A model generated the notes under the pieces. That model did no database searches. It had not been told where the DNA came from and saw only the letters and a list, made by a program, of their open reading frames with translations. DNA of 64,000 nucleotides from Escherichia phage NHEP10, in sequence record PQ511148.1. The stretch is one strand, 5' to 3'. Positions 147-8,380 of the stretch are shown here, in pieces. Position 1 is the stretch's first letter. Each line of letters begins with the position of its first letter. Both the position numbers and the translations under genes were made by a program.

Positions 147-174
147 AATATTCTCCTCATGTTTTAATAGGACT

Positions 175-204
175 ACTATAACATAGCCCTATAATTGTGT
201 AAAC
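175..204 (-). promoter_or_regulatory. early-type promoter (GTTTAC-N18-TATAGT), family-A cassette
   Basis: reverse -35 at 199-204, -10 at 175-180. Confidence 0.55.
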
Positions 205-217
205 AGTTTTTGTGAAG

Positions 218-1174
218 TTATTTGAAAGGTTTTACCATATGGAAATTTTGTTTGAAACGTTTTACGTAATCGTCGTGTCCTAAGCTTTGGTACATACTTA
301 CAACTTTGCTGTAGTTTTCCCAGGCGTATTCACGGAACCAACCGGAGGTGATGCTTGTGCAGACTTTTTCTAATGCCATCATGAAACTGGCTTCAGTGTT
401 AATTTCAAAGTTATTAGGAATCTGAGAACGTTCTAACGCTAGTACACATGATTCTTCGTATACACCGGCCAATTTGACCATTTCCGGTAATGATTCGAAC
501 TTCTCGCGTGAGGTCATGACTTCAGAACCACCTTTCATATAAAATGTATACGCTGGGCGGTCTGTTAGTGCAATGGCTTCATGAATAGTATCATGGTCAT
601 ATGTATAGATGTCATCTTTAAAGAACGCACTTTTAGAAGTGTCAAGAACCGGGTGAGCATAGTTCAAAGTTTCTTTCTGGCGTTTTAGCATAATTTCAGT
701 AAGTTCATCGTTCAGTGTAACACCTTTACCACGAAGATACTGAATATGGTTCATAGTCTTTAAAAAGAATGGATTATTTTTCTTGAAACGATGAGACATC
801 TTAATTGCAAGACATATCTCAGGAGTTGCCCAGTAAAACCCGTTCAAACGGTCTTTAGTCAAATTTTTCTTGGCGTATTTTAAAAGGTCATAAGAAGACG
901 TGAAATCTTCAGGAGTGAGTTCACCGACTAATTCACGGACATTAGTGATTGCCGGAACAATATATGCTTCAAAATGAGTTTCGCGTCCATTATGGAAGCA
1001 TTTGAAAACTTGGACATCAGGGTTATCTTGGTGAACATATACACCCATCATTTGATTTTTGAATGCATTCCAAGAACCTTGGTCTGCAATAAAGTCCCAG
1101 TCACTATTTTTGATAGCGTTAGAATCAATAAGACCATGATAGTGAAGTGCACGAGAACCAATAACCAACATCAT
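218..1174 (-). CDS. hypothetical protein, 318 aa
   Basis: long ORF in track; N-terminal GS...DWD stretch loosely resembles a nucleotidyltransferase motif (unverified). Confidence 0.7.
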   Translation of the reverse strand: MMLVIGSRALHYHGLIDSNAIKNSDWDFIADQGSWNAFKNQMMGVYVHQDNPDVQVFKCFHNGRETHFEAYIVPAITNVRELVGELTPEDFTSSYDLLKYAKKNLTKDRLNGFYWATPEICLAIKMSHRFKKNNPFFLKTMNHIQYLRGKGVTLNDELTEIMLKRQKETLNYAHPVLDTSKSAFFKDDIYTYDHDTIHEAIALTDRPAYTFYMKGGSEVMTSREKFESLPEMVKLAGVYEESCVLALERSQIPNNFEINTEASFMMALEKVCTSITSGWFREYAWENYSKVVSMYQSLGHDDYVKRFKQNFHMVKPFK

Positions 1175-1202
1175 AATATTTTCCTCGGATTAATTCATTA
1201 AC

Positions 1203-1454
1203 TTAAATTTCACGACATGCGATATTATATTCATCCCAGAGGTCATCATGTGAAGCCTCTACCAATGGAACGATTGTACCGTTTATGTCTTCATTATAAG
1301 GGCAAATTGTACAGTGCGCATCTTCGAATCGGATGCCTTTGTGTTCAGATTTTTTATAACGCATATCGAATATCTTTGCAAACTTTTCACGAGTAATAGT
1401 TTTAGCAACTACTTCGGTTCCAATACTTTCGTAATAAATCATTGTGGTCTCCAT
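1203..1454 (-). CDS. hypothetical protein, 83 aa
   Basis: ORF track; early-type promoter 1471-1500 immediately upstream, short leader. Confidence 0.6.
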   Translation of the reverse strand: METTMIYYESIGTEVVAKTITREKFAKIFDMRYKKSEHKGIRFEDAHCTICPYNEDINGTIVPLVEASHDDLWDEYNIACREI

Positions 1455-1470
1455 TTAATTTGATAGGACT

Positions 1471-1500
1471 ACTATAACATAGCCCTATCTTGTTGTAAAC
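1471..1500 (-). promoter_or_regulatory. early-type promoter, family-A cassette
   Basis: reverse -35 at 1495-1500, -10 TATAGT at 1471-1476. Confidence 0.55.
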
Positions 1501-1504
1501 TGTT

Positions 1505-1702
1505 TTAGCAAGAATAACTAGATGATACCCAGCCTTGAACAGTAATGCTATTATTAGATAATGAGATTGCGTTCTGGAGATTCAGACCTGCGTTATCTTC
1601 AATCCATAATGTAACTTCTTCGCGTTCTTCTGTTGCAATTTGGAACAGGTTTTCTAGAGCAGCTACTGCGGTACGTACAGCACAATCTAATTCACGAGAC
1701 AT
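1505..1702 (-). CDS. small protein with C-terminal GWVSSSYSC motif (paralogue family member A)
   Basis: ORF track; stop TAA overlaps TAAGGA upstream of next gene; C-terminus shared with two neighbours. Confidence 0.6.
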   Translation of the reverse strand: MSRELDCAVRTAVAALENLFQIATEEREEVTLWIEDNAGLNLQNAISLSNNSITVQGWVSSSYSC

Positions 1703-1711
1703 AGGGTTTCC

Positions 1712-1984
1712 TTAGCAAGTGTGAGAAGATGCAACCCAACCGCCATCTTCAAGGCTCAGGTTGTAGTCGTATTGGTAAACGTCGGCCCATTCAGCATAGC
1801 CGTTTTTTGTACAACGTTCAAGATCGGCTTTAAGATGTCCTGGTGAATGATATGTTCCACCCATACCATAAGCTGGATACAAGTCGAATGTTGTGTTTTG
1901 TTTATTAGCAATTTCTTTGGCGGCCTCAATAGCTGCATAGATTTTTGCTACGGCTTCAGCCAGTTCGGTTTGTTCTTTAGACAT
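1712..1984 (-). CDS. small protein with C-terminal GGWVASSHTC motif (paralogue family member B)
   Basis: ORF track; helical N-terminus and Y..G..Y motif shared with 1994-2299. Confidence 0.65.
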   Translation of the reverse strand: MSKEQTELAEAVAKIYAAIEAAKEIANKQNTTFDLYPAYGMGGTYHSPGHLKADLERCTKNGYAEWADVYQYDYNLSLEDGGWVASSHTC

Positions 1985-1993
1985 AATGATTCC

Positions 1994-6545: not shown

Positions 6546-6624
6546 TAAATAACTTTCTATTATGAAAGGCACTTTAGAGTACCTTTGGTAATAGAGGGTA
6601 TGAATTAATAATAACACATAATTC

Positions 6625-7140
6625 TTAAAGCAAATCAATCATTTTAACAGTCGGCAAAACAATTTCTTTTTCAATATAAGCAAATTCGACACGTTCAACT
6701 ACACGCAAGAAATCGTAATCATAGTATTCAGAAGCATAGCCAAGAATATCAATAAGTCCTTGAGATATCTCATCGCCTTTCACAAAGAACAGGTCGAATA
6801 CGCGGGCTTCGTCTTCTTCAGATTTATCACCAAGGTCTACTTCGATACCAAAGACCTTTTTAATAAATTCCGGTTGGAGTTGGTCTGAGAACAGTCCTTC
6901 AACCAGATATTCGTAGATAATAAGCGAGCAACGACCGAATGGTGTATTACCGCAATAACGTTCGGCTTTGGTGCTAGAATGACGACTCTTAAATTTCTTC
7001 AAGAGATATTTAAACTGTTGGAGCTCATGCTCTTCCACTTCAAACAATGTTTTGGTTTTATAATTGTCGCCATCACTTTCATAGGTAGTGACATCAATTA
7101 CGTAACCTTTAGGAATTGTACTGCCTAAACAAATATTCAT
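6625..7140 (-). CDS. hypothetical protein, 171 aa
   Basis: ORF track. Confidence 0.6.
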   Translation of the reverse strand: MNICLGSTIPKGYVIDVTTYESDGDNYKTKTLFEVEEHELQQFKYLLKKFKSRHSSTKAERYCGNTPFGRCSLIIYEYLVEGLFSDQLQPEFIKKVFGIEVDLGDKSEEDEARVFDLFFVKGDEISQGLIDILGYASEYYDYDFLRVVERVEFAYIEKEIVLPTVKMIDLL

Positions 7141-7144
7141 TTAT

Positions 7145-7435
7145 TCACCGTACCATATTAATGTAATTATATTCAATGCAACGTAATTTCAAAGGATTCT
7201 TGAAAATATCATATTCAAGAGGGCCTTTTTCTGTTTCAATAAAGAAATCAAAGTTAACTGTGTTAAATTTATCATCTTCACAGAGTAATTTGACCTGTGA
7301 AGACGAACGGTCGATGTAAACCTTTTCAACTTCAAAATATGTTAAAATGCCATAATCATCGATCAATGCTTTAGCTGCACGTTGATCGCTTTCGTATCCA
7401 TTCTCGACAGATTTTACTTTAGCATAAAGAATCAT
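7145..7435 (-). CDS. hypothetical protein, 96 aa
   Basis: ORF track. Confidence 0.55.
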   Translation of the reverse strand: MILYAKVKSVENGYESDQRAAKALIDDYGILTYFEVEKVYIDRSSSQVKLLCEDDKFNTVNFDFFIETEKGPLEYDIFKNPLKLRCIEYNYINMVR

Positions 7436-7812
7436 GAGTGTTCCACCACTTCAAAAGTATGTGCACTTACAATCTGGTACCAGTCAAAATTTTCTTCAGC
7501 ATTTTTGTAGATTTCACGAAGAGCTTCAACAGTTTTTCCTGTAGCAACAAGATCGTCAATACCTCCAAGAGGATAACAGTCGTAACCAGCAAACAGAAGG
7601 AAATTAATAGTTTCTGTAGGTTCTGGATGCAGAATGCCGTTATCATCTACCACTTCAAAGAAAGTGTAAGAAGGAGTACAAGTTTTAATCCAAGCCCATG
7701 CTTGAGCCGCTGAATCAAATGGTTTGCGTATCAAACGACAATCAGGGTCTTTAGAAGGATTTGTTTCAAAATCCGCATATACGTGATATTTCATTTTACT
7801 CACCTTTTGCAA
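7432..7812 (-). CDS. hypothetical protein, 126 aa (alternative start at 7794)
   Basis: ORF track. Confidence 0.55.
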   Translation of the reverse strand: MQKVSKMKYHVYADFETNPSKDPDCRLIRKPFDSAAQAWAWIKTCTPSYTFFEVVDDNGILHPEPTETINFLLFAGYDCYPLGGIDDLVATGKTVEALREIYKNAEENFDWYQIVSAHTFEVVEHS

Positions 7813-8002
7813 TTTTATCCATAACGATAGCGATTAAGCCGATTAGAAATGCTACTACCAATGAGATAGAATTTTCTGTTGTTGTCAGTAGTCCACAAAT
7901 GAATCCTACAAACATCGAAAAACTAAAAGCCATTGAAGCAATTACTACAGCAACATTACGAATCAGTTCAGCGCGTTTCATTTTATTTCTCCATTTACTC
8001 AT
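7796..8002 (-). CDS. hypothetical small membrane protein, 68 aa
   Basis: ORF track; hydrophobic; family-A promoter cassette upstream. Confidence 0.5.
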   Translation of the reverse strand: MSKWRNKMKRAELIRNVAVVIASMAFSFSMFVGFICGLLTTTENSISLVVAFLIGLIAIVMDKIAKGE

Positions 8003-8018
8003 TTGTTTTGATAGGACT

Positions 8019-8048
8019 ACTATAACATAATCCTATCAGCATGTAAAC
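8019..8048 (-). promoter_or_regulatory. early-type promoter, family-A cassette, 8-bp inverted repeat flanking the -10
   Basis: -10 at 8019-8024, -35 at 8043-8048. Confidence 0.55.
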
Positions 8049-8050
8049 TA

Positions 8051-8314
8051 TTAAATACCTGCTTCGCGCTTAACATAAGCAACATAAGCTTCGATAGCTT
8101 TCTTGCTGGTAATTTTTACCTGACCGCGTCCGTTGCCTTCTTTAGAGTTTTTCTTAACAACTACATTACCATCTTTAACACCCCATACATGAACATAAGT
8201 ACCGATGTTTCGGTCGTAGAACATTGCATGGTCGTTGTTGTAAGAGAATGATTCGTAGTTCTCTGTCAGAGTAGAAGATTGAGATTCAGCGATAAATTCT
8301 TTATACGTTTTCAT
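8051..8314 (-). CDS. internal-protein-like head protein, 87 aa
   Basis: begins MKTYKEFIAE (T4 internal-protein targeting-sequence type); ATG at 8314; family-A promoter upstream. Confidence 0.65.
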   Translation of the reverse strand: MKTYKEFIAESQSSTLTENYESFSYNNDHAMFYDRNIGTYVHVWGVKDGNVVVKKNSKEGNGRGQVKITSKKAIEAYVAYVKREAGI

Positions 8315-8350
8315 TTGTTTTTTCCGTTTGGTTGTTGATTTGATAGGACT

Positions 8351-8380
8351 ACTATAACATAGTCCTATCAGCATGTAAAC
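8351..8380 (-). promoter_or_regulatory. early-type promoter, family-A cassette, perfect 10-bp inverted repeat (8341-8350 / 8361-8370) flanking the -10
   Basis: -10 at 8351-8356, -35 at 8375-8380. Confidence 0.55.

Follow-up and report, generated by a model that had tools for sequence, protein, structure and literature searches.

The DNA analyzed in this study is a stretch of 64,000 nucleotides from Escherichia phage NHEP10 (sequence record PQ511148.1), referred to as the window in the following, and the elements under study are recurrent putative promoter cassettes located in front of small open reading frames (ORFs). Bases 1-9000 share 99.6% identity with Escherichia phages NHEP36 and NHEP11, which assigns the window to the genus Mosigvirus (RB69-type coliphages), and 94-96% identity with about 120 further Mosigvirus genomes of the RB69/JS09/HX01 group. 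Genes within 1-11000 are encoded on the minus strand, and this region is the counterpart of the T4 e - tRNA - ipI - 57B - 57A - 1 - 3 region.

Putative promoter cassettes and their cargo genes

A sequence-only reading of the window had described two families of repeats preceding unrelated small ORFs and had compared them with the promoter early stem-loop (PeSL) elements of T4-type phages. Both families were recovered. The 28-mer of family A (TGATAGGACTACTATAACATAGYCCTAT) occurs in four copies (165-192, 1461-1488, 8009-8036 and 8341-8368) with at most one mismatch each, and none of 100 dinucleotide shuffles gave any match. The 32-mer of family B occurs in three copies (4549-4580, 4921-4952 and 41102-41133), likewise with at most one mismatch and with no copy expected by chance. 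In a repeat search, family A grew to 52-77 nt, relatives were added at 8690-8741 and 56723-56762, and the pair 63234-63329 / 63680-63775 was found. The analysis added six members in total, and those overlooked initially include the ones at 4241-4324, 8669-8745, 56721-56792, 63248-63330 and 63694-63776. The minus strand is the sense strand of every element, so that the plus-strand sequences given in the sequence-only reading are reverse complements. Its observation is confirmed and its interpretation supported, with corrections concerning the strand, the number of members and the missing hairpin of family B.

Nine of the 13 cassettes lie within 1-9000, the hyperplastic e-tRNA-ipI region, and four in the other 55 kb. 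The individual elements are listed below, with -35 and -10 regions, Shine-Dalgarno (SD) sequences, hairpin arms, folding free energies (dG, kcal/mol) and z scores versus shuffled sequences:

A1, 144..214, minus strand: -35 GTTTAC at 204-199, -10 TATAGT, SD GAGGAG, ATG 146-144; hairpin ATAGGGCTA/TAGTCCTAT with one G.U pair (dG -12.1, z -2.2); cargo, a 101-aa membrane ORF truncated by the window edge
A2, 1440..1510, minus strand: -35 at 1500, ATG 1442; hairpin GATAGGGCTATG/UAUAGUAGUCCUAUC (dG -16.0, z -3.8); cargo, a 79-aa ORF at 1203-1442 (phrog_3723)
4314 element, 4241..4324, minus strand: -35 ATTTAC at 4314, ATG 4243, 11/12 sigma70 match; TATAAT in the loop of GAGAGCA/TGCTCTC (dG -13.8, z -3.3); cargo, an e.6-like 197-aa ORF at 3650-4243
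B1, 4539..4610, minus strand: weak -35 ATGTAC at 4600, -10 TACTAT, leader ATCAACTACAGAGGAG, ATG 4541; fold not significant (z -0.3); cargo, a frd.3-like 75-aa ORF at 4314-4541
B2, 4912..4981, minus strand: -35 GTTTAC at 4971, -10 TACTAT, ATG 4914 (z 0.0); cargo, a 101-aa ORF at 4609-4914
A3, 7979..8058, minus strand: -35 at 8048, ATG 7981; hairpin UGAUAGGAUUAU/GUAGUCCUAUCA with a U.G pair (dG -15.4, z -4.1); cargo, a trna.4-like 61-aa ORF at 7796-7981
A4, 8312..8390, minus strand: -35 at 8380, ATG 8314; perfect 11-bp arms at 8341-8351 and 8360-8370 (dG -17.7, z -5.7); cargo, ORF87
8735 element, 8669..8745, minus strand: -35 at 8735; -10 TACTAT in the loop of AGGAUGAUGG/CUAUCAUCCU (dG -14.6, z -3.6); cargo, an ipI-like gene at 8384-8671 (phrog_4363, internal virion protein)
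B3, 41091..41163, minus strand: -35 at 41153, ATG 41093; cargo, an 89-aa ORF at 40824-41093 (phrog_6003)
56782 element, 56721..56792, minus strand: -35 at 56782, -10 TACTAT, arms GGATG/CATCC; fold not significant (z +0.7); located at the end of a 695-aa gene (probably alt)
63320 element, 63248..63330, minus strand: -35 at 63320; 13-bp stem UGGUACAGGUUUU.../...AGACUUGUACCA around the -10 (GGTACA/TGTACC; dG -17.4, z -3.9); cargo, a 121-aa ORF at 62885-63250
63766 element, 63694..63776, minus strand: z +0.4; cargo, a 123-aa ORF at 63325-63696; sister of 63234-63329 (77% identity over 96 nt) without its 5' arm

Read on the minus strand, the cassettes consist of an A-rich stretch, GTTTAC (TTTACA in the sigma70 frame), a 17-nt spacer, TGn and a -10 region (TATAGT, TACTAT or TATAAT), followed by approximately 7 nt, a conserved ATCAA, a leader, an SD sequence and the ATG of the small ORF. 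The -35 region represents the T4-type early GTTTAC consensus, and the A-rich TTCACAAAAC(A/T) is read immediately 5' of it in A1, the 8735 element and their T4 homologues. In every cassette, an SD sequence (GGAG, GAGG or AAGG) is placed 4-10 nt ahead of the ATG, and these ATGs are annotated starts of coding sequences (CDS) in NHEP11, except behind A3. For the gene behind A3, 7981 is the most likely start (61 aa, in agreement with relatives and PHROG 1692); the upstream ATG at 8002, which the NHEP11 annotation and the raw ORF list use, is probably not its start.

In a generic sigma70 scan of the minus strand of 1-9000, the cassettes ranked top with 9-11 of 12 matches plus TG. The scan yielded 27 promoter-like sites versus 28 expected in shuffles, so the count is uninformative and only quality, position and orientation of the cassette sites carry information. 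The promoter-like character attributed to the repeats is borne out in this respect, the cassettes being the best sigma70-type matches in 1-9000 with an SD sequence and an ATG behind each. Based on the consensus, they are inferred to be putative strong early promoters for the host sigma70 on the minus strand. A literature search retrieved no transcript-end mapping study of T4-type coliphages, and a 2025 paper on injected proteins does not mention the promoters. A MotA-box middle promoter was ruled out for B1, as a TGCTT-like string near 4590 is on the wrong strand for the gene.

Cassettes in direct orientation provide 45-95 nt of near-identical DNA separating unrelated ORFs. The cargo proteins (61-197 aa) belong to ten different PHROG families, among which only the internal virion protein has a known function. 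That the cargo is unrelated thus holds at the family level, with the exception that the cargoes of A4 and the 8735 element share the N-terminal MKTYKEFI, an internal-protein capsid-targeting leader and the sole part common to both. Paralogous cargo behind the 63320 and 63766 elements was ruled out, the two ORFs being unrelated (E = 13). ORF87 (8051..8314, minus strand; phrog_13302) is an internal-protein-like gene present in only 28 phage records and represents an uncharacterised candidate injected protein. Direct repeats border it on both sides, A4 at its upstream and A3 at its downstream end. They have 44 bp in common, with one mismatch, and are spaced 332 bp apart, which is the geometry required for mini-circle excision. 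The gene adjoining ORF87 (8384-8671) belongs to the IPI (nuclease-inhibitor) family.

Synteny breaks and mobility of cassette-flanked modules

In order to locate breaks in synteny, seven relatives (PNJ-6, JK42, Mizar, GADS24, TU01, JN02 and SSE1) were compared with the window. The following indel or replacement events are given in window coordinates:

198-212: a 201-nt ORF67 present in six of seven relatives, not in the window or GADS24; inside A1
4305-4319: about 290 extra bp in JN02; inside the 4314 element
4506-4571: a 165-nt ORF55 in five of seven relatives; inside B1
4616 / 4657: a 168-aa ORF replaces the 101-aa ORF; 4616 is 6 nt from the cassette, 4657 inside an ORF
8050 / 8309: ORF87 absent from GADS24, TU01, JN02 and SSE1; inside A3 and A4
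7992 / 8285: another ORF in place of ORF87 in Mizar; within 10-30 nt of the cassette
8649-8703: Ip7 inserted in JK42; inside the 8735 element
6392 / 6472: homing endonuclease and tRNA-Asn in Mizar; not at a cassette

Junctions of five of the eight events fall inside cassettes, which account for 5.6% of the region (P = 2.6e-5), and those of two more lie within 6-30 nt of cassettes. At base level, the crossover was located in the -35 region for the ORF67 event, in the 44-bp core common to A3 and A4 for the ORF87 event, and within the shared SD-leader-ATG and first codons for the ORF55 event. At the position of B2, the relatives carry the same 5' half joined to a family-A 3' half and leader. Such chimeric cassettes are direct evidence of recombination between cassettes. 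A variable junction is not present at all cassettes, A2 being syntenic in all seven relatives. In Mizar, the homing endonuclease gene and tRNA-Asn lie between tRNA-Arg and tRNA-Met (8413-9224 of the compared stretch), the sole indel of the compared region without an associated cassette.

Furthermore, the cassettes extend beyond the genus. The family-A core was found in 198 phage records, Tequatrovirus genomes among them. Family B was found in 140 records, all of Escherichia or Shigella phages, and those whose taxonomy was inspected are Mosigvirus. The Tequatrovirus phages slur03 and phiD1 contain a 334-bp module, in which ORF67 lies between a hairpin cassette and a family-A cassette and which is 91-94% identical to that of Mosigvirus JK42 and resides in the nrdC region between unrelated genes (slur03 1484-1815, phiD1 1484-1833 and JK42 1641-1973 of the compared stretches). 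Homology to JK42 runs from the upstream -35 region into the downstream leader, where it stops. In phiD1, the upstream half of the promoter is a different one, and the junction lies at the -10 region. ORF67 is missing from the window, where only cassette A1 is left at that junction. The role of the cassettes as recombination modules, proposed from the repeats, thus gains support from synteny breaks falling in cassettes and from a cassette-flanked ORF shared with another genus.

The family-B copy at 41102 lies, as described earlier, between the capsid genes g23 (39203-40771, plus strand) and g24 (41195-42478, plus strand), but the gene it would drive is the 89-aa ORF on the opposite strand (40824-41093), antisense between them. 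Cassette B3 and this ORF represent an insertion between g23 and g24 that is absent from Tequatrovirus (T4-proper) genomes, and its right-hand boundary is 7 nt upstream of the -35 region. GC-rich hairpins (GGGAGACTTCGGTCTCCC) at 21439-21468 and 40787-40816 are 90% identical and flanked by T-runs; the latter is a bidirectional terminator common to g23 and the antisense 89-aa ORF.

Other features of the window were also recorded. A non-coding stretch at 5757-6031 (minus strand) shows 92.8% identity over 276 nt to T4 rnaC and rnaD (species 1 and 2 small stable RNAs) and has no matching Rfam model; the 42-aa CDS annotated in NHEP11 and TU01 at the equivalent of 5821-5949 is probably spurious. Two tandem units of about 290 bp (44710-45331, approximately 75% identical) are probably repeated domains within one gene located downstream of g24/rnlB, and short in-frame GAAGAYGAY repeats at 37214-37273 and 48059-48088 encode acidic Asp/Glu runs.

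Hairpins around the -10 region

Folding of the sense RNA yielded hairpins of 8-13 bp in A1-A4 and in the 8735, 4314 and 63320 elements, with dG values of -12 to -18 kcal/mol and z scores of -2.2 to -5.7 versus shuffles. Their 5' arm lies within the spacer and their loop contains TGn and the -10 region, whereas the 3' arm reaches to about +1. The inverted repeats reported around the -10 region of family A are thereby borne out, all four copies folding significantly. The repeat at 8341-8370 is perfect, as stated, but extends over 11 bp rather than 10 bp (TGATAGGACTA/TAGTCCTATCA, 8-nt spacer). An intragenic promoter-like site at 2388 folded no better than shuffles, and an Rfam scan of 1-9000 at the gathering threshold returned two tRNAs alone and no known RNA family over the cassettes.

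As the 5' arm is located 5' of +1, a transcript starting at the cassette's own promoter lacks the hairpin, which can form only in read-through RNA or DNA. In T4, genes e, soc and 49 have hairpins that sequester the ribosome-binding site (RBS) and contain an internal promoter. In both cases, the promoter lies inside an inverted repeat, so that read-through and self-initiated transcripts differ in structure. However, the family-A hairpin ends at about +1 with the SD sequence outside, so that, unlike in T4 e, soc and 49, no direct masking of translation initiation results.

Stems of differing sequence occupy one and the same position, namely AGGATGAT/ATCATCCT in the 8735 element, GAGAGCA/TGCTCTC and GGTACA/TGTACC. 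In Mizar, GATAGGGT/ACCCTATC is present at this position and differs from family A by two compensatory pairs, and AGGTCTGTAG/CTATAGACCT represents a further stem. The T4 ipI, trna.4, e.7, ipII and ipIII promoters possess the same architecture, with stems bracketing the -10 region. For an unbiased sample, IMG/VR promoters were picked by GTTTACA-N14-TGTTATAGT only, leaving the arms free, which gave 105 unique sequences. At least six free pairs were present in 30 of these versus 15.1 ± 3.4 in permutations (maximum 25), and the positives' arms include GGACTA/TAGTCC, GGGCTA/TAGCCC, GGGTCA/TGACCC, GGGCCA/TGGCCC and GGAAGGCA/CTTCC. When the sequences were aligned without gaps, 43.8% of cells were paired in the register of family A versus 38.8 ± 1.3% after shuffling (0/500 shuffles reached 43.8%), and slid registers pair in 36-42%, all below this value; the covariation score was 0.243 versus 0.187. 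Across T-even phages, the stems vary by compensatory changes. Hairpin prevalence based on minimum free energy (at least six pairs enclosing the -10 region) was 73% versus 47% in shuffles; this background is high, and the measure was not used as evidence.

Among 63 helices from 140 unique cassettes, internal mismatches on the sense strand comprised 22 G·T, 3 A·C and 10 others, a count that ignores shared ancestry and, to the disadvantage of an RNA-level role, shrinks to an estimated 9-10 G·T versus 2 A·C independent cases. The excess of G·T mismatches on the sense strand suggests pairing in sense-strand RNA.

The hairpins might be true terminators ending upstream transcripts at each cassette, corresponding to the literal promoter-terminator reading of PeSLs. 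Their intergenic position directly after stop codons fits, and the stem-loop of an RB49/phi1 PeSL cut lacZ expression as much as rrnB T1 (PMC2839356). However, the stems are AU-rich, with the dG values given above, and are followed by A-rich rather than U-rich sequence. A terminator scan detected canonical terminators at 3624-3641 and 5003-5018 and none at the cassettes, and operon-like gene runs without promoters of their own downstream of cassettes imply substantial read-through. Termination at each cassette is regarded as rather unlikely, and the label promoter-terminator was not adopted because no canonical intrinsic terminator was found at the cassettes.

In the T4 denV promoter, an arm in the spacer (CTCCTGTAG) base-pairs with the SD-containing leader (CTACAGGAG), so that read-through RNA would mask the RBS and self-initiated RNA would not. 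Family B retains the 3' part alone (TACTATAGACTTATCAACTACAGAGGAG), and the 63766 element retains the 5' arm alone (CTCCTGTAGG, as found in the denV-type cassette of T4). Both denV-type arms are present in the window, but on separate cassettes. Family B and the 63766 element may be read, from their arms, as halves of a denV-type cassette parted by exchange at the common -10 core, which would make them equivalents of the PeSLs that Comeau 2014 described as degraded or half (PMC4122927).

Probable PeSL-type cassettes and alternative explanations

According to the definition of Arbiol 2010, a PeSL comprises an AT-rich region followed by an early promoter, a stem-loop that can take any of five positions (overlap with the -10 region being one of them), an SD sequence and an ATG (PMC2839356). 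In RB49 and phi1, these elements occupy hyperplastic regions, precede ORFans and bound indels between close relatives, and their promoter, terminator and mini-circle activities were shown experimentally (PMC2839356). The class was widened by Comeau 2014 to PST/T4 (TTTACW-N17-TAYWAT) and nt-1/KVP40 (PMC4122927). Moreover, T-even internal protein (IP) loci contain elements that are based on T4 early promoters and whose AT-rich stems are weaker, according to Repoila 1994, as reported in PMC2839356; the cassettes of the window agree with these exactly in locus and architecture. Arbiol et al. call these T-even elements analogues, not homologues (PMC2839356).

The cassettes of the window possess a sigma70-type promoter matching the consensus, an A-rich upstream stretch, and an SD sequence with start codon. 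A stem-loop was found in A1-A4 and the 8735, 4314 and 63320 elements, copies are clustered before small ORFs, and indels are bounded by elements. The cassettes are not homologous in sequence to the consensus of RB49 and phi1 (TTGACA -35, G(n)-loop-C(n) stem), which places them in the functional class, not in that sequence family. The resemblance to PeSLs put forward in the sequence-only reading therefore holds for the published definition (PMC2839356, PMC4122927), but not in full for family B, whose copies lack a significant hairpin and are more aptly called half or degraded cassettes.

With the RB49/phi1 PeSLs, the cassettes share the composite layout, many copies before small ORFs of unknown function, a stem-loop often located over the -10 region, indels bounded by elements, and direct repeats flanking single ORFs in mini-circle geometry. 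In contrast to the TTGACA -35 regions and polyG/polyC stems of those phages, GTTTAC, AU-rich stems and a TAGGR...YCCTA core are present here. Measurements of promoter, terminator and mini-circle activity exist for RB49/phi1, whereas the cassettes described here are predicted from their sequence. With the PST/T4 PeSLs and the T-even IP-locus elements, the cassettes share the TTTACW-N17-TAYWAT consensus and the loci ipI, ipII/ipIII and the e-tRNA region. A Mizar cassette with its -35 region at 10799 of the compared stretch shares the -10 region, 3' arm and leader with T4 P(trna.4) (GTGATACTATTACCCTATCAACTACTGAGGAGAATAAAATG) and differs in spacer and 5' arm. In PST, however, the stem-loops (AGNA-loop-TCNT) lie just upstream of the promoter (PMC4122927), whereas those of the window enclose the -10 region.

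The B3 unit resembles lambdoid-phage morons (Hendrix et al. 2000, described in PMC2839356) in being a self-contained promoter-ORF-terminator unit antisense to its neighbours, but differs in that its type of promoter cassette recurs at other genomic sites and delimits the insertion. As in integron gene cassettes, small promoter-linked ORF modules are exchanged at a recurrent sequence, possibly via circles; unlike in integrons, an integrase and attC-type sites are absent, and exchange presumably occurs by general homologous recombination.

The cassettes are probably PeSL-type regulatory cassettes of a T-even-like Mosigvirus that serve as portable recombination linkers for accessory genes. Each cassette combines a putative early promoter with a UP-like A-rich stretch, an initiation region (ATCAA), a short leader, an SD sequence and the start codon of an accessory gene, and in about half of them an inverted repeat places TGn and the -10 region in the loop of a predicted 8-13 bp hairpin. 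In read-through RNA, the hairpin would function as an attenuator or as a protector of 3' ends and thereby insulate each small gene. The efficient homologous recombination of the phage would use the directly repeated cassettes as linkers, presumably without a dedicated enzyme, and crossovers within cassettes would delete, insert or swap the ORFs in between and leave chimeric cassettes behind.

Several points weigh against parts of this interpretation. Promoter use and strength in NHEP10 are deduced from the consensus. B1-B3 and the 56782 and 63766 elements fold no better than shuffles (z about 0), and no U-tract follows the hairpins on either strand; an attenuator or 3'-end-protector role, which the G·U bias favours, is weakened by the missing U-tract. 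Regarding recombination, A2 is syntenic throughout, the homing-endonuclease indel of Mizar is unconnected to cassettes, and the replacement end at 4657 lies inside an ORF. T4-type phages recombine at microhomologies of 6-10 bp anywhere (PMC9391042), and the enrichment of breakpoints in intergenic promoters may in part reflect survivorship instead of targeting, viable recombinants being only intergenic.

A stronger version of the interpretation, in which the -10 hairpin is a selected functional element, maintained through covariation in T-even-type phages, with an as yet undescribed role and the cassettes are active shuffling sites instead of passive homology, is quite unlikely. Such a role could consist of U-tract-independent 3' ends insulating accessory genes, of early-promoter shut-off or of a trigger of targeted recombination.

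It is also conceivable that the cassettes are ordinary early promoters, their copies being alike through selection for strength or vertical descent and the indels representing surviving intergenic recombinants. The complete synteny of A2 and the microhomology recombination of T4 agree with this, as does the extended consensus that T4 early promoters share outside the -35 and -10 regions (PMC2988021). However, spacer and discriminator are identical between copies (28/28 and 44/45 nt), and equally good promoters have wholly different spacers with compensating arms, which one optimum would not give. Crossovers within shared tracts yield chimeric cassettes, and the 334-bp module is bounded exactly by two cassettes and 94% identical across genera with unrelated flanks. 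Ordinary promoters are thus a very unlikely explanation.

A repeat acting at the DNA level, either as operator or cruciform for a phage shut-off protein or as an endonuclease VII-type substrate initiating targeted recombination, is highly improbable: it would accord with the repeat being centred on the -10 region, the classical operator position, with an AT-rich loop favouring extrusion, with the still unexplained shut-off of T4 early promoters (Hinton 2010, PMC2988021), with the stem-specific DNA-binding protein on which Arbiol et al. speculated (PMC2839356) and with GGGC/GCCC inverted repeats at T4 deletion ends (PMC2839356), GGGC...GCCC arms also occurring here, but the stems are too diverse for one sequence-specific protein, the sense-strand G.T bias equals A.C on the other strand and disfavours a two-stranded cruciform, and crossovers also fall outside the hairpin, in the -35 region and SD-ATG.

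Taken as PeSL-type recombination linkers, the elements are of a known kind, in a genus (RB69/JS09 Mosigvirus) for which the set is not catalogued in the literature examined. Early promoters of RB69 were predicted in 2006 without mention of stems, and JS98 alone was mentioned in passing. The PeSL model is thereby extended from three phage pairs to a whole genus, and the new population data, comprising chimeric cassettes, a cross-genus module, and stem covariation with G·U bias, lead to testable predictions on the role of the hairpin. For annotation, the cassettes provide reliable gene starts and expose spurious CDS calls. For engineering, they represent natural landing pads at which genes can be added or removed without disturbing their neighbours. 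Concerning the biology of these phages, the cassettes mark the plastic sites of the RB69-type genome, and the small ORFs flanked by them, which include injected internal proteins that in T4 counter host restriction, are the genes likeliest to decide host range and counter-defence.

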